From the IMG/VR virus record IMGVR_UViG_3300035698_010625, positions 1 to 64,000 of that record: a stretch of 64,000 nucleotides of DNA; one strand, given 5' to 3'. Origin of the DNA: a virus. Positions 4,705-63,268 of the stretch are shown in pieces; the stretch's first letter is position 1; every line of letters starts with the position of its first letter. Made by a program: the position numbers and the translations under genes. The notes beneath the pieces were generated by a model. The model saw nothing but the letters and a program-made list of their open reading frames with translations, was not told where the DNA came from and made no database searches.

Positions 4705-5835
4705 ATGCAAACAATTGATTTTTTCATGGATCTCCCAGATGATCTATTTCCAATTTTTGAAATGTTTAAAGATGCTGATGCAGAACTCTATGTAGTTGGT
4801 GGTGCTGTACGAGACGCTCTTCTTGGTGAAACACCAAAGGACTTCGATCTCGTCACAAACGTTGAACCTGACGTAGTGCTTGAAATGGCACGAAAAGAAG
4901 GTATACACACAACTGCAGTAGGTAAAGCATTTGGAGTTGTCATTGTAAACGGCCATGAGATTGCTACTTTCAGAAAAGATATTGGAAGTGGTAGGCGCCC
5001 AGATTCAGTAGAATTTACTGATATTAACGGCGACGTCTCACGTAGGGATTTAACGATTAATGCACTCTTCTATGACACTGTTAAATGTCAGATTGTTGAC
5101 TTAGTTGGTGGGCTGGATGACCTTCTGGGCGTGGATAACGCAGATAGTCCACTCATCCGAACGGTGGGTGACCCCGCTGAAAGATTTGGGGAAGATCATC
5201 TTCGTAAGCTGCGCGCTGTGCGCTTTACTGCTTCTCTTGCAGGGAAGATGGATGATGACACGTTTACTGCAATCTGCAATAATCCGATGCTCGAAGGCGT
5301 TTCGCCAGAACGTATACGAGATGAGTTCATTAAAGGTTACATTAAAGCAGATAATAAAACAGTATATTTGAAATTGCTTCATTCAACTAGGTTAATGAAT
5401 TATATTTGGCCTACTCTGTGGGAAGTAAATTGGAATTGGGTGTTTGATGCCCTTTTCAATGTAGTCTTCGAAGATTGGAGATTACAACTTGCTGCAATGT
5501 TTGTTGGTACACCAGCAGATATGTTGAAGGACGAACTATTAAAGCTGAAATACAGTAAAGCTGAAGTATACGATATTTGCTTATTGCAGAGCCTTGACCG
5601 TTATGATTACAAAGATATTGTATCAATGAAAAAACGGTTGTCCCACACAACTCTTAGTAATGAGGATATCCTTCTATATGTGCATGACAAAAAGAAACTC
5701 AACAACTTACTGAATTTCGTGCTTACTGTAAAGGGTGGAGATGTAATGGCAGAAGGCTTTGTTGGCCCTGCAATTGCAACAGAAGTTAACCGAAGAGAAT
5801 TAGAACTATTTAGGAAAATGGATGAAGACTTTTAA
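4705..5835 (+). CDS. cca: class II tRNA nucleotidyltransferase (CCA-adding enzyme)
   Basis: VGGAVRD..KDFD catalytic motif, RRDLTINAL, EDHLRKLRAVRF (EDxxR templating motif), SPERIRDE. Confidence 0.85.
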   Translation: MQTIDFFMDLPDDLFPIFEMFKDADAELYVVGGAVRDALLGETPKDFDLVTNVEPDVVLEMARKEGIHTTAVGKAFGVVIVNGHEIATFRKDIGSGRRPDSVEFTDINGDVSRRDLTINALFYDTVKCQIVDLVGGLDDLLGVDNADSPLIRTVGDPAERFGEDHLRKLRAVRFTASLAGKMDDDTFTAICNNPMLEGVSPERIRDEFIKGYIKADNKTVYLKLLHSTRLMNYIWPTLWEVNWNWVFDALFNVVFEDWRLQLAAMFVGTPADMLKDELLKLKYSKAEVYDICLLQSLDRYDYKDIVSMKKRLSHTTLSNEDILLYVHDKKKLNNLLNFVLTVKGGDVMAEGFVGPAIATEVNRRELELFRKMDEDF

Positions 5836-6232
5836 GCAACTAAACGAATCAAAGAAGCAGGGCTACTTCGCAGTAATCCTCGATAAGCCAAGTCAAAAGA
5901 AAGTTCGTGCTTATGCTTCTTTTGAAGTCATTGATAGTAATCATATGACAGTTGCTTTTACTCCACCTTTAGAAGTATATGAAAATCTCATTAAGAATCA
6001 GGGGACTATTGTCGAGTTACGTTCACAGAGTTATTTAGAAAATGACAACATTGGAGCACTGATGATTTCACGCTCATCAGTAACACGATACGACGATAGT
6101 CCCGCTCACATAACCGTATCTAGAAAGGCTGGAGTGAGTGGAAAAGACGCTAAGAAATTACCAAGTACACACACAAAGAAACAACAAGCTGCTCATAATT
6201 TGCGTGGCAAACTACAATGGATCACGTTATGA
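5822..6232 (+). CDS. 2H phosphoesterase (cyclic phosphodiesterase fold) with capsid-targeting-like N-terminus
   Basis: Two HxT motifs (HMTVAF, HITVS); starts MKTFKQLNE. Confidence 0.65.
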   Translation: MKTFKQLNESKKQGYFAVILDKPSQKKVRAYASFEVIDSNHMTVAFTPPLEVYENLIKNQGTIVELRSQSYLENDNIGALMISRSSVTRYDDSPAHITVSRKAGVSGKDAKKLPSTHTKKQQAAHNLRGKLQWITL

Positions 6233-6777
6233 AGTCGTTTGATGAGTACATTACCGAATCACCACTGAAAGCTCTGCGATACGCTAAGAAACAACACAGT
6301 GGACAGACAAGATCTGATGGATCACCTTACATTAAACACCCTATGCGTGTTGCTAGATATTTACGTGATTTCAAAGCGTCAAAACAGTTGGATAAGTTGA
6401 TACAAGCAGCGTGGTTGCATGACACTATTGAAGACACTGACACGACCCATGAAGATTTAGAAAAGATGTTCGGAGGGCTTGTTGCTTCACTTGTTAAAGA
6501 ACTTACTTCTGATAGTGCTCGCATTAAAGAAATCGGAAAAACTGCTTACATGCAGGACAAGATGAAGCATATGTCTTCTTGGGCGCTTGCTATTAAGCTT
6601 GTAGATAGGCTTGATAACGTTCAAGATATCGCTACTGCGCGTACACCTGAATGGCGGGCTAAATATAAGAAACAAACACTCGATGTTATGGCTACACTAG
6701 AGAAGGATAGAACCCTTAGTGGAACTCATACACGAATCATTACTGCTATCAAGAAAAAATTAAGTGAAGTTGATTGA
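6229..6777 (+). CDS. HD-domain hydrolase, SpoT/Mesh1 ((p)ppGpp hydrolase)-like, capsid-targeting-like N-terminus
   Basis: HSGQTRSDGSPYIKHP, AAWLHDTIEDT, IKLVDRLDN; ATGA-coupled start at 6229 (MKSFDEYITE). Confidence 0.85.
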   Translation: MKSFDEYITESPLKALRYAKKQHSGQTRSDGSPYIKHPMRVARYLRDFKASKQLDKLIQAAWLHDTIEDTDTTHEDLEKMFGGLVASLVKELTSDSARIKEIGKTAYMQDKMKHMSSWALAIKLVDRLDNVQDIATARTPEWRAKYKKQTLDVMATLEKDRTLSGTHTRIITAIKKKLSEVD

Positions 6778-7295
6778 AAACTTTTACTACATTTATGGAA
6801 GGAAAGAAAATGAAAAACTTGGGATATCTCTACTTTGATATGGATGGCGTACTCTGTAATTTTGAGAAGCGCGCTAATGAACTCCTACCTGGAGATTCTT
6901 TCAACTACATTGGTGATAAGGAATGGAAAGTTCTCAATCAAGCAAAAGGTTTTTGGTCTGATTTAGAGTGGATACCTGGTGCTAAAGGTATGATTGAAAA
7001 GATGAAACGGTACAGTCCTAGAATCCTATCAGCATACACTAAGAGCAATCCTTCAGTGTCACAAGATGGCAAAATGAAATGGTTAGCGAAAAACATCCCA
7101 TGGATCAAAAAAGGTAATATCAACCTTGTAGTAAGGCGTGATAAGAAACTTCATGCTATGACTGATGGAAAGGTAAATATACTTATTGACGATGTTGGTG
7201 GAAACATCAAAGAATGGAATGCTGCTGGCGGTATCGGAATTTTGCATACAGAAGTACGCATCACAATGAACACATTAAAGAGGTTGGGTTACTAA
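6774..7295 (+). CDS. HAD-family 5'(3')-deoxyribonucleotidase (NT5C-like)
   Basis: DMDGVL motif I, ILIDD, W..AGGIGILH; starts MKTFTTFME. Confidence 0.8.
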   Translation: MKTFTTFMEGKKMKNLGYLYFDMDGVLCNFEKRANELLPGDSFNYIGDKEWKVLNQAKGFWSDLEWIPGAKGMIEKMKRYSPRILSAYTKSNPSVSQDGKMKWLAKNIPWIKKGNINLVVRRDKKLHAMTDGKVNILIDDVGGNIKEWNAAGGIGILHTEVRITMNTLKRLGY

Positions 7296-7354
7296 TGAAA
7301 ACATTTTCTAATTTTATAAGTGATACTGGTTATGGGAATGCTGGTGAAATTTGA
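7295..7354 (+). CDS. 19-aa micro-ORF MKTFSNFISDTGYGNAGEI (capsid-targeting-like peptide or gene remnant)
   Basis: TAATG-coupled upstream and TGATG-coupled downstream; same MKTF..F motif as neighbours. Confidence 0.45.
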   Translation: MKTFSNFISDTGYGNAGEI

Positions 7355-7779
7355 TGTATGAATATAATTGCACCATAACTAGGCATATCGATGGAGATAG
7401 TGTTGAAGTAGCTATAGATTTAGGTTTTGGTGTATGGCTACTTGAGCAATCAATAAGAGTACACGGATTAGATACACCTGAGTCTAGAACTTCTGACGCT
7501 GAAGAAAAAGTCTTCGGATTGATAGCAAAAGATAAAGCAAAAGTATTACTTCCAATTGGCTCGTCACAAACACTTGTCTCGAAGGCGTTTAAGAAAGGAA
7601 AATTTGGTAGGATTTTGGGTGACTTCAAGTTTACAGAAACCACTTATGCAGAATTCATGATAGAAAATCACTACGGTGTTGCATACTTCGGTCAAAGTAA
7701 AGATGATGTTGCTACAGAACATTTGAAAAACAGAGTTACTCTTTTGAGTAAACCAAAGGATGATGATGGCGAAATTTAA
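7354..7779 (+). CDS. thermonuclease (SNase-like) family protein
   Basis: IDGDS..IDLGF, IRVHGLDTPESRT, GKFGRILG. Confidence 0.85.
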   Translation: MYEYNCTITRHIDGDSVEVAIDLGFGVWLLEQSIRVHGLDTPESRTSDAEEKVFGLIAKDKAKVLLPIGSSQTLVSKAFKKGKFGRILGDFKFTETTYAEFMIENHYGVAYFGQSKDDVATEHLKNRVTLLSKPKDDDGEI

Positions 7780-50951: not shown

Positions 50952-50966
50952 ATGAAAATTTACAAT

Positions 50967-51300: not shown

Positions 51301-51315
51301 AACAAAGGTATTATT

Positions 51316-51759: not shown

Positions 51760-51765
51760 ATTTTT

Positions 51766-51841
51766 GGGGGATTAGCTCATCTGGGAGAGCGTCTGTTTTG
51801 CAAGCAGAAGGTGATCGGTTCGAGTCCGATATCTTCCACCA
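51766..51841 (+). tRNA. tRNA-Ala(UGC)
   Basis: G3:U70, CCA. Confidence 0.93.
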
Positions 51842-51876
51842 TTTTACTAGAAAGATTCATATACTTTCTAGACATT

Positions 51877-51954
51877 CGTTCGGTAGCTCAGCCTGGTTAG
51901 AGCACCCGTCTGATACGCGGTAGGTCGAAGGTTCAACTCCTTCTCGAACGACCA
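51877..51954 (+). tRNA. tRNA-Ile(GAU)
   Basis: Cloverleaf, CCA. Confidence 0.88.
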
Positions 51955-52211
51955 ATTTAAAGAGCTTAGGTGTAGAAACGAGAATGCACCTTTAAGAAAA
52001 CCTTGTTGCTGGGCTACCCGATAAATCATCTTCTCAGATGTATGCAACACAAACTTCAGCTCTTCCTTTTGTACTGTCATGCGGGGTCGCCTCGGTGACG
52101 AAAGTGCTAGCGGGTACCGTCTTAGTAACGGTTTCACGAGGTGCAGGACCTCGGGGGTTTTCAGTTTCCACAATCGGGCTAGCTAAAACTGAAGTACAAT
52201 TTTATTACAAT

Positions 52212-52288
52212 GCTACGTTCGTCTAATGGACTAGGACTCTGGGTTTTCACTTCAGATAATATCGGTTCGAATCCGATACGTAGTACCA
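52212..52288 (+). tRNA. tRNA-Glu(UUC)
   Basis: Cloverleaf, CCA. Confidence 0.88.
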
Positions 52289-52296
52289 ATTTCAAT

Positions 52297-52372
52297 TCCT
52301 AGTTAGTATTCTTGGTGAGCACGGGTGACTGTTAATCACTTCAGGTAGGTTCGAATCCTACACTAGGAGCCA
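52297..52372 (+). tRNA. tRNA-Asn(GUU)
   Basis: Cloverleaf, GCCA. Confidence 0.88.
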
Positions 52373-52460
52373 AATCAATGAGAGTTTAGTTCAAGTTAGA
52401 ACATCTGGCGCAATAGTCAGAAGATGCTGGTATCGAATCCAGTCCCTTTCACCGAATAAT

Positions 52461-52546
52461 GGATGTGATGTACCGGTGGTGGTATAGCGGGCTGTAACCC
52501 CGTGGCTCTTATGGGCGAGTAGGTTCGACTCCTTCCACATCCACCA
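52461..52546 (+). tRNA. tRNA-Tyr(GUA)
   Basis: Long variable arm, CCA. Confidence 0.85.
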
Positions 52547-52634
52547 ATTTCGTTGGCAGTAAGGTCACGCATTGAGATTGACCTCCTAGTAATAGGTACC
52601 TGATGGGTAAATTAAAAAGTGCGATTTCAAATTC

Positions 52635-52712
52635 CGGTGATTAGCTCAGCCTGGTTAGAGCTCTCCGTTTGGGGCGGAGTTGCCAGAGGTTCGAATCCTC
52701 TATCACCGACCA
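52635..52712 (+). tRNA. tRNA-Pro(UGG)
   Basis: Cloverleaf, CCA. Confidence 0.92.
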
Positions 52713-52885
52713 ATAACTAATTATCTAATGTGCTTGCCGGCATATGCGGATGATTGCACGAACTTCTATTGATAACAAGCGGTAACTTGTAATCATAAGA
52801 TGAGTTAATTAGTAGTTTAACGGTAGATCGCCTGGCTGGAAGATGCGGGTTCGAATCCTGTCTAATTACTTTCGTGATTTACAAC

Positions 52886-52960
52886 AGTTCCTTAACTCAG
52901 AGGCAGAGTATCGCTTTTACACAGCGAAGGTCGAGATTTCGAAATTCTCAGGAACTACCA
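52886..52960 (+). tRNA. tRNA-Val(UAC)
   Basis: Cloverleaf, CCA. Confidence 0.88.
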
Positions 52961-53148
52961 GTAACTAATCAACAGCTCGATGGGAGTCTTGCTATTTGAT
53001 TGCACAGCGTCTTACTCCCATAAGATTTATTGATAGTGTAATGGATGCACACTGGGGTTTAAACCTGGAAGTACGGTTCGATTCCGTGATTAATAACTTG
53101 GGCTGTGATTTACAAATCGCTTGAGCAACTGCTCGCGTACAATACAAT

Positions 53149-53236
53149 GGGAGTGTGGTGGAATTGGTATACACATTGGTCTTAGAAACCAACGACTGTA
53201 ATGGTCACGCAGGTTCGACTCCTGTCACTCCTACCA
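53149..53236 (+). tRNA. tRNA-Leu(UAG)
   Basis: Long variable arm, CCA. Confidence 0.92.
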
Positions 53237-53319
53237 ATCAATGTTCGATTAGCATAATGCAATGCGGCAAGTACTTGTAGAAGAAAGCTCGAATCTTTCA
53301 TCGAACTCCAAATTTAAAC

Positions 53320-53393
53320 GCTCAATTAGTTCAATGGTAGAACAACGGCCCGGTAAGTCGTTAACGTAAGTTCGATTCTTACATTGAGCACCA
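53320..53393 (+). tRNA. tRNA-Thr(GGU)
   Basis: Cloverleaf, CCA; C at position 33 (atypical). Confidence 0.85.
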
Positions 53394-53561
53394 ATTAATG
53401 CCCGGTTCGTCTAAATATTAGGACCTCTGCCATATTTGAGCAGAAAATAAAAGTGAGATTCTTTTACCGGACACCAAACAATGCCAAGGTCGTCTAATAA
53501 TCTAAGACCCTCTCGTGATAGAGAGAAATGAGGTGTAAATCCCCCCGAGGCACCAAACAAT

Positions 53562-53637
53562 GCTGGAGTCGTCTAACGGCTAGGACTTTACATTCTCAGT
53601 GTAAACAATGCGAGTTCGAATCTCGTCTCCAGTACCA
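53562..53637 (+). tRNA. tRNA-Glu(CUC)
   Basis: Cloverleaf, CCA. Confidence 0.88.
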
Positions 53638-53642
53638 AATCT

Positions 53643-53729
53643 GGATTGATCCGCTGGGTAGGCCGGCAGCACGGTTTGAACCCGTGGGTGACCGAAAGGT
53701 TAGGGGTTCGACTCCTCATCTCTCCGCCA
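53643..53729 (+). tRNA. tRNA-Ser(UGA)
   Basis: Long variable arm, GCCA; acceptor mismatches. Confidence 0.8.
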
Positions 53730-53965
53730 ATTTTATCCTTCGCTCGTCTAATGTTAAGACACCAAACCGTGGAGGTTTGGGGATAGAGGTTTGATTCCTT
53801 TGCTTAGGACCAATTTTAATGACTACTTCCTATACGTAGGTTAATAACTGAAAAGTTAAGAGTGGTCACCAAGTTATCCCACACTCATCGAATGGTACGG
53901 TAAACGTTAAGAAACGTTTCGTGGGGAGTTTATCAGAAAGCCGTGACAGATAGACAACTAACAAT

Positions 53966-54039
53966 AGCTGCATAGCATAGTGGTAATGCGGGGGTCTTTG
54001 AAACCTCTCAGTAAGGTTCGATTCCTTATGCGGCTGCCA
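53966..54039 (+). tRNA. tRNA-Gln(UUG)
   Basis: Cloverleaf, GCCA. Confidence 0.88.
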
Positions 54040-54125
54040 ATTTTGATGTGGATATAATCTATCCCTTGTGCGGGTGCCCCTAGTAATAGGTCAAGGCAGC
54101 AAACTGCTCACATCAGATTTAATAT

Positions 54126-54212
54126 GGAAGATTAACTAGACAGGGTTCTAGAGCTGTTTGCTAAACAGATGGTACCGCAAGGTATGAGTTTCGAATACTC
54201 AATTTTCCGCCA
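54126..54212 (+). tRNA. tRNA-Ser(GCU)
   Basis: Long variable arm, GCCA. Confidence 0.87.
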
Positions 54213-54241
54213 AACATAAAGAAAAATTAAGTATTAACAAT

Positions 54242-54316
54242 GGGACTCAGGTGTAACTGGGTGCACGGCGGACTTTTAATCCGTAAGGACAGGGTTCAAG
54301 CCCTGGGGTCCCACCA
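54242..54316 (+). tRNA. tRNA-Lys(UUU)
   Basis: Cloverleaf, CCA. Confidence 0.88.
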
Positions 54317-54403
54317 AATGTAAATGGAAATGCTTCGGCATTGTAAAACTCACCGAAAGGTTTCCACCCAAGTGTGGATATAAAGAAGTTCCGATTAGTC
54401 AAT

Positions 54404-54477
54404 GCGTCTAAGTACAAGGTGTATCCTCGGGTTTCCAACCCGTAGTGAGTGGGTTTCGATTACCCCTAGTCGCTCCA
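54404..54477 (+). tRNA. tRNA-Gly(UCC)
   Basis: GCG start, U73, CCA; atypical D arm. Confidence 0.75.
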
Positions 54478-54482
54478 ACAAT

Positions 54483-54555
54483 AGTTATCTAGCTCAACTG
54501 GCAGAGCACTAGCTTCATACGTTAGGGAATCTCGGTTCAAATCCGAGGGTAACTA
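54483..54555 (+). tRNA. tRNA with CAU anticodon (Met elongator or Ile2); no encoded CCA
   Basis: Cloverleaf; ends A-CAA. Confidence 0.85.
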
Positions 54556-54561
54556 CAATCT

Positions 54562-54569
54562 TATAAATA
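54562..54569 (+). promoter_or_regulatory. T4-type late promoter inside the tRNA island
   Basis: TATAAATA upstream of the MQTFKSFTE ORF. Confidence 0.8.
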
Positions 54570-54595
54570 CTCTTTTAATAAACGAGTATCAGAAA

Positions 54596-54850
54596 ATGCA
54601 AACTTTTAAAAGTTTCACCGAAGGAAATGTCGTTAAATTTCCTAAGAAGAAAAAACAAACCCACGATGAAATTACTGGATTGCCAATTGATTCACGTCTT
54701 CCAGATACCCCAGACGAATGGATGGTTGTATCAAAGGATGAGAGTGTAGCATATAGCACTTCACCAACTCGTCAAGAAGCACAGAAAAAACTTAAGACGT
54801 ATATGATGAAGACAGGTAAGAGAGATCTTAAAGTCATCAAATTTGGCTAA
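54596..54850 (+). CDS. small late protein with capsid-targeting-like N-terminus (internal protein candidate)
   Basis: MQTFKSFTEG; own late promoter. Confidence 0.6.
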   Translation: MQTFKSFTEGNVVKFPKKKKQTHDEITGLPIDSRLPDTPDEWMVVSKDESVAYSTSPTRQEAQKKLKTYMMKTGKRDLKVIKFG

Positions 54851-54859
54851 GATAATCCT

Positions 54860-54888
54860 CGCCAAGAAGGTCTAAACCATATATAATG
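54860..54888 (+). promoter_or_regulatory. phage early/middle promoter GCCAAGAAGGTCNAAACCATATATAAT
   Basis: Near-identical copy at 61427-61453; TATAAT -10. Confidence 0.7.
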
Positions 54889-54898
54889 ATATAACAAA

Positions 54899-54970
54899 GC
54901 GGGTATAGCTCAGTGGTAGAGCGGAACGTTGCCAACGTCCAGGTCGAGAGTTCGAATCTCTCTACCCGCT
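54899..54970 (+). tRNA. tRNA-Gly(GCC); no encoded CCA
   Basis: Canonical cloverleaf; ends U-CUA. Confidence 0.9.
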
Positions 54971-55180
54971 CTAATTTAGGATTATATGATGAATTTGGGA
55001 CTAACAAGTGATTGTGAGGCAGAAGCATATTTTGATAGCGCTGATACTTACATCAAACAATACAACGCTACTTATATGTTTGAGAATAGTTCTGCGAGAG
55101 TCCGAACTATCATTGCTGAATATTTTGCTAATCTAGATAATAAAACTATTTGGCTTTGGAAAACTAAGAGTGATTGAATC

Positions 55181-55399
55181 ATGCGCCTTATCATTTCGCG
55201 GACTAACAATGACAGCACTTTGGACTTCGAAGTTCATGATGCACGTTGGGTTACTTTTAGTGATAAAATGAAAGCATTTGCTTGGACTCGTCCGGGTAAT
55301 AAGCTTGGAATTTACTTCTCCGAGGAATATGTCAATCGCCGCTTTGTGAACATCTTTTGCATTAGCGCGCTTGAGAACATGCACTGGCAGGTTAAGTGA
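55181..55399 (+). CDS. hypothetical protein
   Basis: Short ORF in small-gene run. Confidence 0.45.
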   Translation: MRLIISRTNNDSTLDFEVHDARWVTFSDKMKAFAWTRPGNKLGIYFSEEYVNRRFVNIFCISALENMHWQVK

Positions 55400-55409
55400 G
55401 GATTACATT

Positions 55410-55601
55410 ATGTGGATTCGATTTGAAGAGAAACAACCCAAACAAGATAAAGACCTTTATTACTTCTTCGATGTAGTAGGTGTTCACTCAGGGCGCTATT
55501 ACGGCGGTGATACATTTCAAGGCCGAAGAGGTTTTCTCAATGGTGACGTTACTCATTGGCAATATGATAAAGGGCAGGGAAAACCTGCTGAACCAAAATG
55601 A
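55410..55601 (+). CDS. DUF551-like small protein
   Basis: MWIRFEEKQP...VTHWQ pattern. Confidence 0.55.
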   Translation: MWIRFEEKQPKQDKDLYYFFDVVGVHSGRYYGGDTFQGRRGFLNGDVTHWQYDKGQGKPAEPK

Positions 55602-55606
55602 ATAAT

Positions 55607-55683
55607 GCAAGAGTGGCTCGACTGGTGAAGGCCGGCGTCTTATATGCGTCTATATGTGGGTTCGAATCCCGCCTCTTGTACCA
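55607..55683 (+). tRNA. tRNA-Ile(UAU)
   Basis: GGCGT-CT-TAT-AT-GCGTC arm, CCA. Confidence 0.85.
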
Positions 55684-55691
55684 AAATATTT

Positions 55692-55768
55692 CAGGGTATA
55701 AGTCAGTCTGGTAGACACCCCGGTTTGGAACTGGGAAGCCGTTGGTTCGAATCCAACTACCCTGACCA
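55692..55768 (+). tRNA. tRNA-Pro(UGG), second copy
   Basis: Cloverleaf, CCA. Confidence 0.9.
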
Positions 55769-55785
55769 TTTAAAGAGAGTACATT

Positions 55786-56046
55786 ATGCTTACATTCAAT
55801 ATTAAAGATTTCTTTTGTTGGCATAGTATTCAAAAAGAAGAGTCATTTGAAGCTTTTCATGCAAGAGCAGAAGCACTGCATGAAACTTATCAACATTGGA
55901 CTCCTGTAAATGAAATTGAAAGAACAAATAGAGCAGTATGTTTTGTATCTTTTATTAACAATCACCCAAAAATCGTAAATCCATATACTGGTAAAACAAA
56001 AAAACAATTTTCTTTAACGGAATATCCTATATCTACCTTGTCTTAA
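55786..56046 (+). CDS. hypothetical protein
   Basis: ORF between tRNAs. Confidence 0.45.
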   Translation: MLTFNIKDFFCWHSIQKEESFEAFHARAEALHETYQHWTPVNEIERTNRAVCFVSFINNHPKIVNPYTGKTKKQFSLTEYPISTLS

Positions 56047-56069
56047 AGGTTGTATAATGATTATTCAAT

Positions 56070-56145
56070 ACACGGTAAGCAATTATGGTTAATGCGCTGG
56101 CTTGAAGTCCCAGATAACTAAGTTCGATTCTTAGACCGTGTACCA
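56070..56145 (+). tRNA. tRNA-Phe(GAA)
   Basis: Cloverleaf, CCA. Confidence 0.85.
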
Positions 56146-56168
56146 ATTTATTATGGAGTGACTGTGAT

Positions 56169-56870
56169 ATGTTTGCTGATTTTTGCACTGATCATTTCTC
56201 GACGAGTAACAATGCACATTACAGAAATCCGCGAACTGTTGACCAAAATGTAATTGCTAATGAGACAATGCTATTTAGCGCATCTCCAGAATTTGCTACT
56301 GCAAATGGTGGCCCACTTACTGCTTACTTTCTCTCCAAGCTTTTTGATGGTGGATTTGAAAGCATTGATACTCGAGGAATGCATTGGGTCATTGATACTC
56401 GCTCGCACATGCTGATGCCAGGTCAATTTCCTTCTATTCCAGGTTGGCATTGTGATGCTTGGGAGCGAGATCCAAAGACACAACAACCACTTTTATGGCA
56501 GCACCCACATGGTACCGCTATGCATTTTGTAATGACACTTGGTACTAATGATGATGGTGTATCACTTACAAAATTCATACTTCCTTTTGGTGTGCCGATT
56601 CGTGTATCTTACGATCCATCCAAAGTTTGGGGTTCTGTAAACGAATCAATTGAACACCAAATTGAAGATCTCGTTATATCACCAGATAGAATTATTAGTG
56701 CGCCTTCAGGGACACTCATTTCGTTTGGACAAAACATATTACATACGGCTAGTGTAGCTACCAGTAAAGGCTGGCGCTTCTTTGCTCGTATAAGTTTAAT
56801 GACAAATCCACCACTCAACAAAATTCGAAAACAGGTACAAGTTTACGCTGATTCAAATGTTGGTTGGTAA
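56169..56870 (+). CDS. 2OG-Fe(II) dioxygenase-like protein
   Basis: PGWHCD (HxD), distal LHTA, R.F.R end motif. Confidence 0.65.
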   Translation: MFADFCTDHFSTSNNAHYRNPRTVDQNVIANETMLFSASPEFATANGGPLTAYFLSKLFDGGFESIDTRGMHWVIDTRSHMLMPGQFPSIPGWHCDAWERDPKTQQPLLWQHPHGTAMHFVMTLGTNDDGVSLTKFILPFGVPIRVSYDPSKVWGSVNESIEHQIEDLVISPDRIISAPSGTLISFGQNILHTASVATSKGWRFFARISLMTNPPLNKIRKQVQVYADSNVGW

Positions 56871-56954
56871 ATGAATTAAGGGAAACGTTGGTTCGAGTCC
56901 AACTCCTGCGCTGGTGCAAAGGATCGTAATTGATGGCCAAGACACCCTTACGTT
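56870..56954 (+). ncRNA. circularly permuted tRNA-like RNA (YrlA/Y-RNA-like order)
   Basis: TAAGGG/CCCTTA stem enclosing T arm, then closed acceptor-like hairpin, then D-like arm. Confidence 0.55.
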
Positions 56955-56959
56955 ACAAT

Positions 56960-57033
56960 GTTGATATGGCAGAATGGTTATGCCGTGGCTTGCAAACCCA
57001 CTTACTCTGGTTCGATTCCGGATATCAACTCCA
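56960..57033 (+). tRNA. tRNA-Cys(GCA)
   Basis: U73, CCA. Confidence 0.88.
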
Positions 57034-57285
57034 AGATAAGGCTTTAGCCGCAGCAGAGTAGTCAGGCATGACATAAAAGGTCGAAATGAAAAAGTTTAGC
57101 CGGCTCGACCAGCTTTATTTCTGAGTTCAAAGGTGGTCCTGAGCACGATGGATATGCACCAATTGTAAAAAATGTCTGTGATGGTGATTATACCGAATTC
57201 TCAGTTTGTTTGGAATGTGGTACTCTGAAAGGTACTTTCCCGGTTGATGATCCTGTTTGGAATGATGAAGAAGAAGATTAACAAT

Positions 57286-57358
57286 GCGCCGCGCTCTGGG
57301 TAAGCAGTATGGTTTCCAATGCCTCGCGTGTGGAGTTCGATTCTCTGGCGGCGTGCAC
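57286..57358 (+). tRNA. atypical tRNA, probably Trp(CCA)
   Basis: Acceptor and T arm good; weak D and anticodon stems; TT-CCA-AT loop; no CCA. Confidence 0.5.
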
Positions 57359-57380
57359 CTGTAATAGATTAAAGAATAAT

Positions 57381-57456
57381 AAGAGTATAGTATAATGGCT
57401 CATTACCCCGGGCTCTGAACTCGGTAATCTAGGTTCGAATCCTAGTACTCTTGCCA
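57381..57456 (+). tRNA. tRNA-Gln(CUG)
   Basis: Cloverleaf, GCCA. Confidence 0.9.
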
Positions 57457-57463
57457 AATATAC

Positions 57464-57538
57464 GCCTGCTAAGCATTAATGGTGATGCACTGGTTTTGTA
57501 ATCCAGAGAAGAGGGATCGTTACCTTCAGTCGGCACCA
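57464..57538 (+). tRNA. tRNA-Thr(UGU)
   Basis: Cloverleaf, CCA. Confidence 0.82.
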
Positions 57539-57541
57539 AAT

Positions 57542-57615
57542 CGCGAGATGTTGAAATGGCATCCTGCTGGGCTCATAACCCTTCGTTGGCGGTTCAACTC
57601 CGTCTTTCGCTACCA
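57542..57615 (+). tRNA. initiator tRNA-fMet(CAU)
   Basis: C1:72 mismatch, GGG/CCC in anticodon stem, CCA. Confidence 0.8.
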
Positions 57616-57729
57616 ACTTTGTGAGATCGTCAAGTGTAATTATGTTAAAGCCCGAGATGATGACATTACAAAATGTACGAATCGGTTAATCTTTAACTAG
57701 CACAAGGGACATCTCACAAACTTTTTTAT

Positions 57730-57868
57730 GTTGTAACTGCAAGGATAATGCAGGGTGGTTGGAGAGCTTGTGAGGGTGTACAACCTTTTATCCACAGGTA
57801 TAAAGTTAGCTTTAACAAATCGAGGCGCTTTATAAATCTCTAGTGAAGTTCGATTCTTCATTACAACA
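57730..57868 (+). ncRNA. tRNA-like RNA with ~85-nt insert replacing the anticodon region
   Basis: GTTGTAA/TTACAAC acceptor, CTGCA/TGCAG D-like arm, TGAAG-TTCGATT-CTTCA T arm. Confidence 0.55.
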
Positions 57869-57876
57869 CTTTCAAT

Positions 57877-57964
57877 GGGAGTATGGTGGAATTGGTATAC
57901 ACAGCAGACTTAAAATCTGCCGCCTGTAATGGGCTCGGGGGTTCGAATCCCTCTACTCCTACCA
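57877..57964 (+). tRNA. tRNA-Leu(UAA)
   Basis: Long variable arm, CCA. Confidence 0.92.
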
Positions 57965-58404
57965 AATTAAGGTAAATATGATGCAGGAAACAAGCACTAA
58001 AACTATAGCAGATAAAGAAGCATTGATTCTGTCTGCTGGTGAATGTTATCCAGATACATCTAGTTTTATACGAGATGAAGTTGTGAAAGACATTAATTTT
58101 AAGCTAGTTGATAAGATGTGGGGCAAATAACGAGTGTTGCTCATGCTCCAACCTTCATATACAATGGTGAATGTAAACCTTGTGTAAGTAGGTTGTACCG
58201 TAGCTATTTGAGATACACTTATATAACTGCTGCACACATTAATGCACTGGTGTATGACATGGTAGTGGAATTAGATGATTTACTTATAGATGCTTCTGAA
58301 TTTCACCCATATATGATGGCGATACCACAATTAGCTGAAGAAGAATATATTGAATTTAATCGAATTGCATTCAAACTTCGATTTGCATTTTAAAGATTAA
58401 CAAT

Positions 58405-58479
58405 GCCCCGGGTGTTGGATACACAGCAGAGGTTTCTACCCTCAGCCTTCTGGGTTCGACTCCTAGTCGGGGTACACCA
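58405..58479 (+). tRNA. tRNA-Arg(UCU)
   Basis: GAGG-TT-TCT-AC-CCTC arm; T arm; atypical D arm and 3' end (ACACCA). Confidence 0.7.
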
Positions 58480-58492
58480 TTTAAGGTTCATT

Positions 58493-58771
58493 ATGAAATA
58501 TCTTCTTGAGTTGTATTGGATGTGGAGGGACCGCCAAAGAGCAGAAGCTGAACTCGATAAATTCATAGCTGTTAAAAAGTGGGATGCTAGCATTCGTTGG
58601 AATAATGACAAATCGGTTGAAAACATTCTTTATATTGGTCTTGAAAATGGCCGTGGTGAACGTAAAATACAAATTCATGATTATGGATTAACCCGTACTT
58701 ATTCTAAGTCGAAGGCCCATCTCATTTATACAAAGTACGTTTTGCCATGGCAGCATAAAATAAATGAATAA
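58493..58771 (+). CDS. hypothetical protein
   Basis: Start moved downstream of tRNA. Confidence 0.5.
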   Translation: MKYLLELYWMWRDRQRAEAELDKFIAVKKWDASIRWNNDKSVENILYIGLENGRGERKIQIHDYGLTRTYSKSKAHLIYTKYVLPWQHKINE

Positions 58772-58877
58772 TAACCTTTATCTTAAGGTCCTATATTGAT
58801 ATAATATACTTATTGGAACGCACCTATTTTGCTGTCAACGCAATGTTGGCTTTTTTGTAATTAAACGGGGATACATT

Positions 58878-59702
58878 ATGATTACGCGAAACAAATTGGC
58901 TGTTGCTATTCTTGCTGCAGTTTCCATTACTACCGCAGCACACGCATCTGAAGTTACTACAATCACCGCTGGCTCCAAGGGCGGTGCATACGCTACTTAT
59001 GGCAACAATCTTGCAACTATGCTCACCCAGAATGATTGGAAGAGTAAGGTTATTCGCAGTAAGGGTTCAATTCAGAATATTGCCCGTCTTGTAGATGGCT
59101 CAGCACAAATTGGTTTCACCCAGGGCGATGCTTTGCAGCTCTCAAAGGCTGGTGGTAAGATTGATATTCTTGGAGCACTTGGAATGGAATGTGCTTTCAT
59201 TGTTTACAGTAAGAAGGGTAAGGTCACTGACGAAGATCATCTTCAGAATGAGGGTGTGAAAATTGCTGTTGGTAAGAAAGGTACTGGTTCACAAGCAACG
59301 TGGTCTTACATGGTTCAGCTAGAACCTGCATACGGTAATGCATCTGCACAGTATACTGGCGGAGCTCGCGCACTTGGCGCACTCAAAGCAGGCACTGTTG
59401 ACGCTGTTCTCTTTGTCACCGATCCCACTAATCTGAGTCATAAGCTTATTCAAGCAGTAAATGGTGATCCAGACCTCGATTTTCTAGACGTTGATGACAG
59501 TGACTTGAATGATGATCTACCTAATGGCACGCCTGTCTATGAATTCAAAGAAGTTGACACTGAAACGGGTGCTTTCGCGGATGACGTAGATACTATCTGT
59601 ACGCCTTTGCTAGTAATTGCTAGTGCAGATGCTGACGAAGACATGCTTGATGATGCTGCAGGAATTATGCTAAGCAATCGCAATGCGGTGCTTGGTAAGT
59701 AA
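58878..59702 (+). CDS. TAXI-family TRAP transporter solute-binding protein
   Basis: Signal peptide (AHA), GSKGGAY, SKGSIQNI, AQIGFTQGD, VGKKGTGS. Confidence 0.8.
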   Translation: MITRNKLAVAILAAVSITTAAHASEVTTITAGSKGGAYATYGNNLATMLTQNDWKSKVIRSKGSIQNIARLVDGSAQIGFTQGDALQLSKAGGKIDILGALGMECAFIVYSKKGKVTDEDHLQNEGVKIAVGKKGTGSQATWSYMVQLEPAYGNASAQYTGGARALGALKAGTVDAVLFVTDPTNLSHKLIQAVNGDPDLDFLDVDDSDLNDDLPNGTPVYEFKEVDTETGAFADDVDTICTPLLVIASADADEDMLDDAAGIMLSNRNAVLGK

Positions 59703-59725
59703 CAATGCAAAAGATAGTCGTTCCC

Positions 59726-59923
59726 AAGTTAGTACTTAATCGCTCTACGGAGAGGAAAGTCGGGACAAGCGGCATGATCGTGTGGGAGGAGTTAACTCCG
59801 CTTTACCACCGTGACATAGCTTGCAACACAAACAGGATTAGACAAATTGTGCATCAATGATATCCGGGTTGTGGCCAATAGACGAATGATAGCATAGAAC
59901 AGGATCCCGCTTACGGATTACTT
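59726..59923 (+). ncRNA. minimal RNase P RNA (rnpB-like)
   Basis: GAGGAAAGTCGGGA (CR-I) pairs with AACAGGATCCCGCTTA (CR-V) as P4 with bulged U; AGACGAATGAT (CR-IV); P5, P15 and L15 GGU can be drawn. Confidence 0.8.
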
Positions 59924-60212
59924 ACTACTTACAAGGAGCAAATGATGAGCAAGGTATACCCTCACTCAAGCACTAAGCAACGCGAACGATACGTGAAACA
60001 AAACGCTATTAAAGGCGAACGCTCTATCGGGCAAACTGATGCTTCAGTAGGCTGGTATGGACTTACAGTAAATTGGAAAGCTATTGTGCGTGGTGCACCG
60101 TGTTACATTACAACTAACTAAAAGGAGCAAGATATGCGCTTGATGAATTTAGAGCACCTCCTTAAATTGTGATTTTTGGTAAAACACTAATTCACACTTA
60201 AGGAAACATCTA

Positions 60213-60590
60213 ATGAAAATCACTTATCTCAAAATTAAAGTAAAGTCACTAGCAGCAGAGTCACGCATGATCCGCCAAGAGGAGTTGAAACTCAAACGTC
60301 GATACCAGGCGATTAAACTGTTGGACAATCAGTATGACACTGCAGCAGAAGAGGGAGACATAAGGTCTACTCGTTTAGGTCTTTATGAACACCGTACAGA
60401 TGATGTACGTCGAGAGTCGCGTGTAGCTAATATTGCTTACGGTCTACTTCGAGGAAGAGAGTATAGCAAAATTGAGCGAGGAGTTCGGGAGTTTAATCAA
60501 CCGAAATGGACACGCGTTACAAAGTTGATTGAGAAGTATTCAAACAGTGAGGAGCAGAAGGTTAAAGCTTTTCAACTGATTGAGCAGTAA
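60213..60590 (+). CDS. conserved phage hypothetical protein
   Basis: LKIKVKSLAAESRMIR..R...IAYGLLRGREY. Confidence 0.65.
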   Translation: MKITYLKIKVKSLAAESRMIRQEELKLKRRYQAIKLLDNQYDTAAEEGDIRSTRLGLYEHRTDDVRRESRVANIAYGLLRGREYSKIERGVREFNQPKWTRVTKLIEKYSNSEEQKVKAFQLIEQ

Positions 60591-60597
60591 ATATCAT

Positions 60598-60624
60598 GAC
60601 GGAGCGCTTCGGCGCTCTCGTTTT
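60598..60624 (+). terminator. UUCG hairpin terminator
   Basis: GAGCGC-TTCG-GCGCTC followed by TCGTTTT. Confidence 0.6.
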
Positions 60625-60838
60625 GGCTGACACGGTGACTACCTGGCTTTCAATCCAAAGGAGTTTAGGGTTCGATTCCCTTATCAGCCACCAAATTTTA
60701 GGAGAGGCATTATGAGTATATTTGCTTGGATTGTTTTTCCATTTTTATTCCCCGTGGTTGTCGCAATGTTTTGGGTGCTGACACATGTGGATCCATACAC
60801 TGGTAAGGTTCATTGGAATCTTACGTGGTAAACGATAT

Positions 60839-61128
60839 CATGTAGTAGTTTAAATGTTGGCATTATGAGGAAAGGTGAAGATTATTTGAAAGTAAAATTA
60901 AGTTAGTAGCAATTCTGTAGTGGTGATGTAACGAGACGTGTAGGTAAAAACGTGAGCCAAATGAAAGATTGGACAGGCATCATCATCGAGGGCGTTGCGA
61001 ATTCTTCTTTTGAACCCTTTAATTAGTAACCTTTACTTACGTGTCACACGGAAAAACGCTAGGAACCCCCCCGCTTACGCGTCTCTTAATCCTGGATATC
61101 CACGGTTCAATACCGGGCTACATGGCCA
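60839..61128 (+). ncRNA. ~290-nt tRNA-scaffolded RNA
   Basis: CATGTAG/CTACATG-GCCA acceptor, T arm, D stem GTTT/AAAC around ~195-nt insert, enlarged anticodon loop. Confidence 0.6.
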
Positions 61129-61152
61129 ATTTCTTGAAACGGAGTTTATAAT

Positions 61153-61398
61153 ATGAATGATTATTTTAATGCGTTTATTATGATTTTGGTTATAGCGATA
61201 GTAACAAATGTTGGTTGGATTATTAATTATGATGATCTTAAAACACTTCATGAAAAGGCGTTAAGTATTCATAAGATTGAAGTCATGCAACATAGACAAG
61301 CTATTTGTCGTAGTGCAACAGCTGAACACGCAACTAATACTGCTACACTCTTCGAAGCAATCAATAAGCTCAATTCTGCTGCTAAGGCTGCAGAATAA
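61153..61398 (+). CDS. small membrane-anchored protein
   Basis: N-terminal TM; RBS GGAG. Confidence 0.5.
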   Translation: MNDYFNAFIMILVIAIVTNVGWIINYDDLKTLHEKALSIHKIEVMQHRQAICRSATAEHATNTATLFEAINKLNSAAKAAE

Positions 61399-61459
61399 TT
61401 TACTTTAATGGCATAAGATATACCTTGCCAAGAAGGTCGAAACCATATATAATGGTACT

Positions 61460-62347
61460 ATAATCTGAACACAAACTAATAGATTGGGTCGCGTGGGATC
61501 CATAAGATAAGTAGCAGTAATGTTACGAAAGGCTATCTCATTTACGGATAGCGCCACTTTTATGAAGGTGGACATCTACGCAAGCCAAGCTCTTTACGGG
61601 TACCTCCGGGTGCTCTGGAAGATAAGTTGTGACCGACAAACACATCCAGGCCAACGGTGAGGATGATAGATTCCGCAAGAATCTCGGGTCAAGCAAAAGC
61701 AACGAACTTCAATGAGCAAAGGGTAGATTGAAAAGTTAAGCTTGCAGGTAAGGCTTTCAATCAATACGATAGGTGAAAGAAGATACAGCCTTCTGGAATC
61801 TAGAAATATTGCTAAGTAGCTCGCAAGGCGAAAGGTACGAGGTGGGTGGTATTTGGTAACTCAAAGGTTATTGAGCCACAGGCATTCGCTCATCTTAAAA
61901 TGTAAATATGTAAACGGAATAGGGGAATAGGTACACCCGCCCGGCCGCCAAAGCCAGGATCTGTTGGTTCGAATCCAACTTTCGTTATCAACTTTGTATT
62001 GATAACAAATCTTAAATGCAAAGACGAATGCCACCGTGAAGTGGAAATTGCTTAATCCTCAAACCCATAGGGTAATTGAGGTTCAGGATGCTCGCAAGGC
62101 GGATTGAATTAGTTGGAGTCACAGGTAAATTCTTAGCGGAGTTACACAGCCCAGCAAGGCTGACCGGTCGATGAATGCTGAAAAGCTCGCGGATAGAGGA
62201 ATCGCTACCTCTTTAAACAAAGCAGCAATGGTTGATTACTATGCCGCTCTTCGGAGGGTAAAGTGGAAAAGAGAAGAACCTAGCGGATCGCACCGTGTGG
62301 ATAATTTCTCGAAGGATCAACTGCATATGAGTATATTCTCAACTCAT
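61460..62347 (+). ncRNA. large structured ncRNA, GOLLD-like, with embedded tRNA-like element (61913-61990)
   Basis: Own promoter (-10 at 61448-53); ~890 nt without credible ORF; many GCAA/GNRA hairpins; GGCATTCG/CGAATGCC helix flanking the insert; terminal TGAG-TATATTCTCAA-CTCA hairpin. Confidence 0.65.
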
Positions 62348-62557
62348 CTGTTTACTTATGGCAGGTTGTACGTTCTCTGCCTTAAACGTACTGGCTTTCT
62401 GGGGAGGCTCAGATAACCGGGTAGTTCACCTAACTACCTGCCATAAGTAAATAGGAAGATAATATGAACATTGATAAAGTTGAACTTCAGAAGATCTTTC
62501 TTGAAGTTTTTACTAAACACCCAGAAGCTGCAAAGATTTTTCTAAAGGGTAATAACT

Positions 62558-62857
62558 ATGAGCACGACCCCTACAAGAAGTTTGAGAGTTGAAAGATCAT
62601 ATACAAATAAGTTTAACCAAGTAATTGAAGTTGGTGATGAAGTAGTATTTGTTGCAACTTCTTGGGGTGGTACTGATATTCGCCAAGGTGTTTATCTTGG
62701 ATATTACCCACGCACTGGTTGGGATGGTCGCCCTGCACTTCATGCTGCTAGTGTATCATACATTGGTAAGGAGTGGGATGGAAGAAAATGGATTGACGAT
62801 GCAGTACTTCATTCTGTTCTTGAACTCGGTCGTGTTTTCAAAATTGAGAAAGTATAA
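62558..62857 (+). CDS. hypothetical protein (paralog of next ORF)
   Basis: N...Q.IEVGD.V...R.G.Y.G...R.FKI pattern. Confidence 0.6.
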   Translation: MSTTPTRSLRVERSYTNKFNQVIEVGDEVVFVATSWGGTDIRQGVYLGYYPRTGWDGRPALHAASVSYIGKEWDGRKWIDDAVLHSVLELGRVFKIEKV

Positions 62858-63174
62858 TGGCATTCCTCGAAGAGTCATTTGTCAATGAAATCGGGCAACG
62901 TATTGAAGTTGGGGATCGTGTAATAGCGGTCGCACATGGATACAATCTCAACTGCCGTCCTGGTATCTATGAAGGTTATCACAGTCATGGCGAACAATAT
63001 TATACTATCTCACAACTTGTAGAAACTGCAGATGGTGGGTTTAAGAAAGATGAACGTGGTAATTATGTGAGATATACGAAAAAACATTATTACATTCGAA
63101 TGTTACATCGCGTATTGTACGATGAAGGTTGGCGTGGAATACTTCAGAATGGTAACATTTTCAAAATTGCATAA
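62857..63174 (+). CDS. hypothetical protein (paralog of previous ORF)
   Basis: NEIGQRIEVGDRV...RPGIYEG...IFKI. Confidence 0.6.
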   Translation: MAFLEESFVNEIGQRIEVGDRVIAVAHGYNLNCRPGIYEGYHSHGEQYYTISQLVETADGGFKKDERGNYVRYTKKHYYIRMLHRVLYDEGWRGILQNGNIFKIA

Positions 63175-63178
63175 CAAT

Positions 63179-63268
63179 GGCATTGTGGTGGAACTAAGGT
63201 ATACACAGCGTCTTCAAAAGCCGCCGGTCTTTGAGACTATGAGGGTTCGACTCCCTCCGATGCTACCA
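63179..63268 (+). tRNA. tRNA-Leu(CAA)
   Basis: Long variable arm, CCA. Confidence 0.88.

Follow-up and report, generated by a model that had tools for sequence, protein, structure and literature searches.

Separable translation-support modules are probable in a divergent T4-like phage: a tRNA island with a reduced RNase P-like RNA and a candidate tRNA 3'-end cassette

Why phages carry tRNA arrays has been a puzzle for more than 50 years, and recent work ties the arrays to tRNA-targeting defenses. The stretch of DNA considered here raises a narrower question: do the tRNA genes of one phage, and its genes for finishing and mending tRNAs, make up a single coordinated kit? The stretch, called the window throughout, is the first 64 kb of the IMG/VR record IMGVR_UViG_3300035698_010625 (105.6 kb, estimated to be 59% complete) and holds about 60% of the genome of a divergent, uncultured T4-like phage. 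A first-pass annotation had listed tRNAs, an RNase P-like RNA, a CCA-adding enzyme, a 2H phosphoesterase, a peptidyl-tRNA hydrolase, a peptide deformylase, and an oxygenase, and had read them as one coordinated system that frees the phage from host tRNA processing and counters tRNA-targeting immunity. Most of these parts are real, although a GOLLD RNA and a SpoT-like HD hydrolase were absent from the list, but the statement of one coordinated kit overstates the case. Our preferred reading, to which we give a probability of about 60%, is that the phage carries three kinds of translation-support genes that evolve as separable modules: an island of tRNAs with a mini RNase P RNA, a cassette for tRNA 3' ends, and scattered single genes.

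The cassette occupies positions 4705–7779 in the order cca, 2H, HD, HAD, SNase, with start and stop codons overlapping along it (Table 1). Its first gene encodes a class II nucleotidyltransferase (P0002), most likely a CCA-adding enzyme. Directly after it, as had been proposed from the bare sequence, comes a 2H phosphoesterase (P0001), for which the overlap with cca, the two H-x-T motifs (HMTV at residue 41 and HITV at residue 96), and the modeled fold all speak. Across 20 homologues His41 is invariant, and Thr43, His96, and Thr98 are conserved in at least 90%. The AlphaFold model has a pLDDT of 94.8, and its top Foldseek rows are the catalytic domain of CNPase (probability 1.0, TM 0.58–0.69), followed by LigT-like proteins; a phage phosphodiesterase comes only 48th. 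P0001 itself has no Pfam match at the tRNA_lig_CPD or LigT_PEase threshold; some of its homologues reach tRNA_lig_CPD. In the HD protein, the HD...ED catalytic motif is intact, and HPMRVA, LHDTIEDT, and DRLDN are present.

Fusions connect these neighbors. An exhaustive HMMER search with P0001 returned 25 relatives, and fusions are seen in four longer ones and in the relative G010. The partner of the 2H domain is PolyA_pol, RNAbd, and tRNA_NucTran2_2 in the 545-residue P0005, HD_4 in P0026, a HAD forming the N-terminal half in P0011, and, in a 312-residue open reading frame (ORF) of G010, an AAA_33 kinase, as in the healing modules of tRNA ligases. The fused partners are homologous over their full length to the cca, HD, and HAD proteins of the window (E 2e-24, 9e-11, and 3e-17, respectively), and therefore all three neighbors of the 2H gene are joined to a homologous 2H domain elsewhere. 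Judged by sequence, these fusions and the gene order point to a functional tie between cca, 2H, and their neighbors, that is, to a putative tRNA 3'-end healing and CCA cassette.

The second module centers on an RNA. The RNase P-like RNA of the first-pass annotation holds up: RF00010 matches it end to end and its catalytic core is kept, although its score lies below the gathering score of the family. In the cmscan alignment it retains CR-I GAGGAAAGUC, CR-IV, CR-V ACAGNAxCCxGCUUA, P4 with its bulged U, and the GGU of L15, whereas the specificity domain (P7–P14) has collapsed, with about 52 nt replacing about 140 model positions.

Such reduced RNAs recur. Scanning IMG/VR for CR-I and CR-V spaced 79–171 nt apart, compared with about 280 nt in full-length bacterial RNAs, gave 30 other viral contigs with RNase P RNAs of about 150–250 nt in three size classes. 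The one P4 position pair that the scan pattern left open is Watson–Crick in 29 of 30 (A-T 17, C-G 7, G-C 5), and RNAalifold, run on ten sequences of the 110–140 class including that of the window, retrieves the bulged P4 and, with covarying pairs, P5 and a P15/16 hairpin. Of the nine contigs in the first set, eight match RF00010 (28–118 bits) and all nine carry 10–47 tRNAs; two homologues of about 200 nt exceed the gathering score (106.8 and 118.5 bits). A tRNA gene lies no more than 100 nt away on the same strand in 24 of the 30 loci, and a tie between the mini RNA and tRNA arrays, as read from these sequences, is supported. The cultured Stenotrophomonas phage DLP6 also has an RNase P-like RNA, of 249 nt (KU682439.2, 105774–106022; RF00010 54.7 bits, E 3e-17; L036). 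It sits in an unannotated gap between the coding sequence AAY80_165 and tRNA-Arg-CCG, 3 nt upstream of this tRNA, in a 30-tRNA island, and RNase P is not mentioned in the DLP6 paper.

Genes of the cassette turn up in the same surroundings. When the 352 frames of the record were compared with 291 kb of mini-RNase P loci, about ten genes had homologues there, and three of these belong to the cassette: cca at two loci, HD at one, and SNase at 5 of 30. In two phages (G004 and G017), cca lies 2–4 kb from the mini RNA, within the tRNA array. Pfam PolyA_pol is found in 12 of 31 viral records with a mini RNase P RNA, including four of the six that are at least 89% complete; across INPHARED, 296 of 50,697 records match P0002. 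The fusions of the 2H domain to its neighbors, the adjacency of the mini RNA to tRNA genes, and the presence of cassette genes in the tRNA islands of other phages argue for at least two functionally coupled modules. What is observed directly is which domains the proteins have, how the operon is arranged, that the fusions exist, and that the genes lie together in other phages. The proposed coordinated system therefore survives as two linked modules, the mini RNA with its tRNA array and the cassette of cca and 2H, but not as a single obligatory kit.

Two side observations concern cassette genes in other phages. SNase is the window gene most frequent in other mini-RNase P/tRNA loci (L005, L052, L055, L057, and L058; E 1e-16 to 1e-39), and it could serve as a nuclease either in tRNA processing or against host RNA. 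A phage that is 93% complete and has a mini RNase P RNA and 37 tRNAs in its locus (G024; L059:2195–5392, minus strand) encodes a 1065-residue protein consisting of an unassigned 387-residue N-terminal region, PolyA_pol, the RNA-binding domain, HD, tRNA_NucTran2_2, and an unassigned C-terminal region.

A number of points weigh against this reading. The complete genome G001 (183.6 kb), with 47 tRNAs and a mini RNA, has neither cca nor 2H, and DLP6 has a weak PolyA_pol match and no 2H. Among 11 relatives, a P0001-like 2H domain and GOLLD are each found in two and a deformylase in one. As for a single kit, the converse of the tie to tRNA arrays fails. RF00010 was run on 11 phage genomes, cultured or very large, selected for carrying a homologue of cca, a related capsid protein, or a large set of tRNAs, and, DLP6 apart, it was negative in all (D482, Kikimora, Myrna, CcrColossus, Melnitz-3, S-SKS1, LR745206, S-CRM01, KVP40, and phiM12); thus phages with large tRNA arrays, such as KVP40, can lack the mini RNA. 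The expectation that mini RNA, cca, and large tRNA arrays co-occur is borne out for the mini RNA and its tRNAs, and for cca in 12 of 31 records, but not by G001 or by the ten negative genomes. In the window itself, the cassette is about 45 kb from the RNA island. Searches of the record, which is 59% complete, gave nothing credible for RNA ligases of the Rnl2 or Rnl1 type, only weak AAA_33 kinase matches on clamp-loader and AAA ATPase genes, and no RnpA. Because neither ligase nor kinase was found in this partial record, anticodon breaks could not be resealed, and independence from host tRNA processing is overstated for a record in which neither RnpA nor an RNA ligase was found. The usual substrates of HD_4 and NT5C-type proteins, the N termini of the cassette proteins, the low score of the window RNA, and the family models for cca also count against it and are given with the alternatives below.

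What might the two modules do? We infer substrates, catalytic activities, and a role against tRNA-targeting defenses from the identities of the parts. The RNA island would supply a nearly full tRNA set together with the mini RNase P RNA, which would cut the 5' leaders of phage pre-tRNAs, probably with the RnpA protein of the host as partner, as the record encodes none. This role in processing leaders fits the retained P4, the core regions, and the CCA-pairing GGU of L15, and these in turn agree with phage tRNAs that mostly encode CCA and have U at −1. In the cassette, the nucleotidyltransferase would add CCA to phage tRNAs that lack it and rebuild trimmed ends, the 2H enzyme would open 2',3'-cyclic phosphates, and the HD and HAD enzymes would strip remaining 3'-pyrophosphate or 2'/3'-phosphate groups. 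We offer only tentatively the wider proposal that some phages with large tRNA arrays run their own line of tRNA end maturation and repair. One half would be an RNase P ribozyme without a specificity domain (S-domain), co-transcribed with the tRNAs, that recognizes them by the 3' CCA and a conserved leader and not by the T and D loops. The other would be a cca/2H/HD/HAD cassette that repairs 3' ends cut to cyclic phosphates, or ends whose CCA has been pyrophosphorylated by defenses such as CapRel-type toxSAS enzymes. The two would sustain translation while the host tRNA pool or its processing is under attack.

For the 2H-HD-HAD trio, the chief competing explanation is a role in countering nucleotides. 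Together with SNase, the three would then form a payload, perhaps carried in the capsid and injected, that degrades alarmones, cyclic nucleotide immune signals, and host nucleotides, and their adjacency to cca would be incidental. HD_4 enzymes usually hydrolyze (p)ppGpp, NT5C-type HADs are usually deoxynucleotidases, and Acb1, an anti-CBASS enzyme of phages, likewise has a 2H fold. The N termini of the 2H (MKTFKQLNE), HD (MKSFDEYITE), and HAD (LKTFTTFME, from a TTG start) frames resemble the capsid-targeting peptides of T4, in which the prohead protease cleaves after Glu. Three further ORFs beyond the window, at 85223, 85642, and 86070 of the record (within 85223–86651), begin with MKTFNQLHE, MKTFIQLHE, and MKSFKHFNE, and by analogy proteins of this MKTF...E type may be packaged in the capsid and injected to act on nucleotides. 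The window also has an Apyc1-like gene, and HD-alarmone phosphodiesterases and 2H enzymes of jumbo phages have been assigned to counter-nucleotide defense (Iyer et al. 2021, PMC7824862). However, the nearest folds to P0001 are those of CNPase, which acts on RNA 2',3'-cyclic phosphate, and not Acb1; its homologues carry tRNA_lig_CPD; and the fusions join homologues to a tRNA nucleotidyltransferase with tRNA_NucTran2_2 and to an AAA_33 kinase in the manner of tRNA-ligase healing modules. We regard the payload explanation as possible, if rather doubtful.

Another alternative is a loose set of independently acquired auxiliary genes whose only task would be to raise translation capacity, through codon supply, extra CCA addition, and deformylation, with its parts unlinked and no anti-defense role. 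Kit composition does vary strongly among the relatives, the deformylase, Pth2-like protein, and oxygenase are scattered over the genome, and each part is known singly in phages, cca being annotated in many and GOLLD occurring near tRNA islands. An unlinked collection would, however, have to accommodate the fusions of 2H with cca, HD, and HAD homologues, the adjacency of the mini RNA to tRNA genes in most of its loci, and the recurrence of cassette genes within the tRNA islands of other phages, and we consider it unlikely. Separable modules, rather than unrelated single genes, remain our preferred description.

It could further be argued that the mini RNA is not a working ribozyme but a decaying captured host gene, or a sponge for the RnpA of the host that shuts down host tRNA maturation. 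The window copy falls below the gathering score, the record shows no RnpA of its own, and the specificity domain, which normally binds the T and D loops of tRNA, is missing. Yet RNase P RNAs without this domain, namely those of archaeal type T and engineered C-domain RNAs, are active. In addition, at least 31 viral records and one cultured phage have the element with a conserved catalytic core, there is covariation in helices P4, P5, and P15/16, and two members of about 200 nt pass the gathering score. Decay or sponging is thus quite improbable, and we retain the reading of the window RNA as a candidate processor of pre-tRNA leaders.

The last alternative concerns cca. Motifs A–D and the flexible loop are intact in its translation and in the alignment to the CCA-adding enzyme 6ibp, its closest solved structure (E 1.7e-29, motifs aligned), with GGxVRD, DxD, RRD, and EDxxR present. 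That the protein is instead a poly(A) polymerase marking host or phage RNAs for decay is very unlikely: the NCBIfam models do not separate the two activities, as the CCA model NF009814 scores 155 bits (cut-off 290) and the pcnB model TIGR01942 147 bits, both below their cut-offs, and among solved structures poly(A) polymerases rank third, at 87 bits, but CCA-adding enzymes lead at 106 bits, the flexible-loop RRPD and the RRD and EDxxR motifs are present, PHROG 2244, which matches the protein, is named tRNA nucleotidyltransferase, the genome has good tRNAs without CCA, and cca is carried by relatives whose tRNAs all lack it. The class II, CCA-type nucleotidyltransferase of the first-pass annotation is thus upheld, with the qualification that family models do not split it from poly(A) polymerase. 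The relatives in question are G002, G007, and G010, and more weakly G008; CCA-encoding relatives have cca less often, in a sample too small for a test. Encoded CCA is itself nearly all-or-none per phage (L005–L013 and L002), at 24/26, 12/13, and 8/8 tRNAs in some and 0/11, 0/11, 0/10, and 1/13 in others.

Table 1. Features of the window discussed in the text, by position
Feature	Position	Strand	Basis and remarks
Nucleotidyltransferase (cca, P0002), most likely CCA-adding	4705..5835	+	Class II; Pfam PolyA_pol and PolyA_pol_RNAbd
2H phosphoesterase, CNPase/tRNA-ligase-CPD type (P0001)	5822..6232	+	Overlaps the end of cca by 14 nt; 136 aa
SpoT/Mesh1-like HD hydrolase, small alarmone hydrolase type	6217..6777	+	Pfam HD_4 70.1 bits vs 27.2; TIGR00691 hydrolase region
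HAD-family nucleotidase (NT5C-like)	6774..7295	+	DMDGV motif; Pfam NT5C E 4.2e-11; TTG start
Staphylococcal-nuclease-like protein (SNase)	7351..7779	+	Pfam SNase; last cassette gene
Peptide deformylase	32382..32924	+	Pfam E 6e-36; TIGR00079 112.2 bits vs cut-off 103.95
DNA hypermodification cluster	32928-39834		MazG-like, DUF1599, thymidylate-synthase-family enzyme, TAGT-like glycosyltransferase, two C5-methyltransferase-fold genes, dATP/dGTP diphosphohydrolase-like protein
YAcAr/SLOG-family protein	41593-41949		Between clamp-loader genes; homologues in two mini-RNase P loci (L039, L048)
Candidate divergent Pth2-like protein (weak)	43075..43461	-	PF01981 12.9 bits vs cut-off 23; two homologues only
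RNA island	50877..63268	+	31-33 tRNA genes for all 20 amino acids; small ORFs interspersed
tRNA-CAU (elongator Met or Ile2 type)	54483..54556	+	Rfam 60.5 bits; no encoded CCA, 3' end A then CAA
tRNA-Gly-GCC	54899..54971	+	Rfam 66.7 bits; no encoded CCA, 3' end U then CUA
PhyH-like cupin, possible 2OG-Fe(II) oxygenase	56169..56870	+	phrog_1843 E 7e-35; inside RNA island
tRNA-Thr-UGU	57464-57538		Added by Rfam and relaxed ARAGORN
Initiator-like tRNA-CAU	57542..57615	+	C1xU72 mismatch, three G-C pairs in anticodon stem, CCA encoded; Rfam 34 bits and relaxed ARAGORN drawing
RNase P RNA-like element, 202 nt	59728..59929	+	RF00010 end to end, 38.3 bits (gathering score 100), E 2.4e-10
GOLLD RNA 3' domain	61839..62345	+	RF02032 151.6 bits vs gathering score 150; model positions 1-416
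Trp-like tRNA	61913-61987		In GOLLD linker; no CCA

The RNA island is close to its first description as about 32 tRNAs for all 20 amino acids including fMet. ARAGORN gives 29 tRNAs, all on the plus strand of the island and none in the rest of the record, and additions from Rfam and relaxed ARAGORN bring the number to 31–33. One tRNA-CAU is called fMet-like because a 1:72 mismatch and three anticodon-stem G-C pairs are hallmarks of initiators. Most window tRNAs encode CCA. Reading the 3' ends confirmed the claim that the other tRNA-CAU and tRNA-Gly-GCC do not, and these are two of the three top-scoring tRNAs in the window; the Trp-like tRNA inside GOLLD and some weaker tRNA-like elements also lack it. 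T stands at −1 in 24 of 30 window tRNAs, and CAAT directly precedes 13 of 30 and ACAAT 10 of 30 (50961–63179), against a background of 0.7% per position for CAAT. Relatives with a mini RNase P RNA mostly have ...AT at −2/−1 but lack the full leader motif. The idea that an AUUGU stretch of the mini RNA pairs with an ACAAU leader was dropped, as this stretch is not conserved in other mini RNAs.

The island also holds two to three aberrant tRNA-like elements (52380–52453, 52806–52869, and 53028–53097), most of them without a proper CCA. Their anticodon arms are aberrant: one element has an 8-nt loop, one is vestigial, and one, UUA "suppressor-like", has a D stem of 3 bp. These elements may represent pseudo-tRNAs or mimics, and annotated pseudo-tRNAs are present in the DLP6 island as well. 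The GOLLD RNA passes the Rfam gathering score and is an ordinary member of its family; tRNAs within GOLLD linkers have already been described, and GOLLD is a known companion of tRNA islands (bioRxiv 10.1101/2024.12.08.627333). Directly upstream of the mini RNase P RNA, at 58878–59702, is a homologue of TAXI/TRAP-type solute-binding proteins (phrog_6856, 199 bits), an odd gene for an RNA island.

Three auxiliary genes stand singly, with no demonstrated link to either module: those for the deformylase, the Pth2-like protein, and the PhyH-like oxygenase. The deformylase is intact, as first annotated: it scores above the TIGR00079 cut-off, has all three motifs (GLGLAAPQ, EGCLS, and HEYDH), and is an ordinary family member. 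For the Pth2-like protein, probably the product of the ORF at 43075–43461, the evidence converges but stays below threshold. The top seven Foldseek rows are all Pth2, at weak E values of 0.04–0.3 from a poor model (pLDDT 49), whereas the Pfam score falls short of its cut-off, a profile search of the PDB gave no Pth2 match, and Pth2/Pth1 motif searches were empty. The oxygenase proposed within the tRNA island keeps a PhyH-like fold likeness (Atlas TM 0.55 to the PhyH cluster and 0.49 to 2OG-FeII_Oxy_5, a likeness at the level of fold only) and an HCD...H pattern seen by eye, of the HxD...H kind, but has no Pfam or NCBIfam match. Separately, an MBL-fold protein at 35294–36082 matches the anti-Pycsar model Apyc1 of Pfam (69 bits, cut-off 50); its best NCBIfam match is the N-terminal part of RNase Z, at 46 bits and far below the cut-off. 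Its role could be anti-Pycsar, or it could act as a nuclease on the 3' trailers of tRNAs without CCA.

The window encodes T4-type neck, terminase, and major capsid proteins, along with a sliding clamp, clamp loader, and RegA. The capsid protein is at most 58% identical to those of Stenotrophomonas phage DLP6, Melnitz, Mosig, and cyanophages, the match to the tail tube (gp19) is weak, and where T4 has its sheath and portal genes there are long frames, assigned by position alone. DNA-level searches for near-identity to the RNA island and cca region among 50,697 phage records returned single tRNAs or nothing, and a related-locus search with the window cca protein gave three loci.

The idea of a repair kit with a counter-immunity role is not new; it has been published for jumbo phages, whose 2H phosphoesterases, HAD phosphatases, CCA-adding enzyme, PTH2, and HD-alarmone phosphodiesterase were described as RNA-repair and counter-nucleotide equipment (Iyer, Anantharaman, Krishnan, Burroughs, and Aravind 2021, PMC7824862). 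What is new is that mini RNase P RNAs recur in phages and that 2H domains are fused to such partners, and for neither did we find a published report in the searchable literature; neither the mini RNA nor the cca-2H, HD-2H, and HAD-2H fusions are found in the text of PMC7824862, and a 2024 review of RNase P does not mention a phage-encoded RNA (PMC11143913). A phage RNase P RNA inside tRNA arrays would mean that viruses carry a copy of a universal ribozyme, and it would be a natural minimal RNase P, and the copy in the cultured phage DLP6 makes it directly testable. The 2H fusions turn the adjacency of cca and 2H into a specific, testable pathway of tRNA 3'-end healing, for damage of a kind known from antiphage toxSAS enzymes.

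How does this arrangement compare with known systems? The jumbo phages described by Iyer et al. (PMC7824862) share the list of parts, a 2H enzyme for the 2',3'-cyclic phosphates left by tRNA cleavage, and the counter-defense reading; they differ in being jumbo phages, in that RNase P has 0 occurrences in that text, and in that their 2H enzymes are tied to RNA ligases, of which none was found here. The window RNA has CR-I, CR-IV, CR-V, the bulged U of P4, and the GGU of L15 in common with bacterial type A RNase P RNA (RF00010) and with the S-domain-less archaeal type T and engineered C-domain M1 RNAs. Unlike type A, the phage RNAs are about 150–250 nt, lie in tRNA arrays, and have almost no P7–P14, and the window copy reaches 38 of the 100 bits of the gathering score.

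The cassette also has counterparts. The CCA enzyme of Escherichia coli is reportedly, in work by Yakunin from 2004, a nucleotidyltransferase with an HD domain that has 2',3'-cyclic phosphodiesterase, 2'-nucleotidase, and phosphatase activities. It likewise joins CCA addition with 3'-end healing, whereas in the window the predicted activities belong to separate but coupled genes, and the role of cyclic phosphodiesterase would fall to the 2H and not to the HD protein; the 1065-residue G024 protein resembles it in fusing PolyA_pol with HD. With the kinase-CPD healing module of the fungal and plant tRNA ligase Trl1 and with CNPase, P0001 shares the 2H subfamily, by its fold and the Pfam family of its homologues, and the AAA_33-2H fusion of G010 recalls that module. 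It differs in length (136 residues, about 210 in CNPase), in reaching no Pfam threshold, and in that no ligase domain or gene was found. T4 offers a precedent for phage-encoded repair of host-inflicted tRNA damage, as its Pnkp and Rnl1 mend tRNA-Lys cleaved by PrrC; T4 uses a kinase-phosphatase and a ligase to close breaks in the anticodon loop, and neither enzyme was found in the window, whose cassette appears to be aimed at the 3' end.

Small alarmone hydrolases reverse the pyrophosphorylation of tRNA CCA ends by toxSAS enzymes (bioRxiv 10.1101/2021.04.30.441581), and toxSAS/CapRel-type enzymes are implicated in anti-phage immunity (PMC9712102). The window HD protein has the same HD_4 domain with its HD...ED motif, but compared with the tRNA-acting hydrolases it may simply hydrolyze (p)ppGpp. 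For a coupling of 5'- and 3'-end processing there is precedent in the tRNAPro-Ser precursor of T4, as it lacks CCA and RNase P prefers CCA (PMC11143913). Overall, and by analogy, the logic of the cassette would parallel that of the HD-bearing CCA enzyme of E. coli, the kinase-CPD module of Trl1, and the small alarmone hydrolases.

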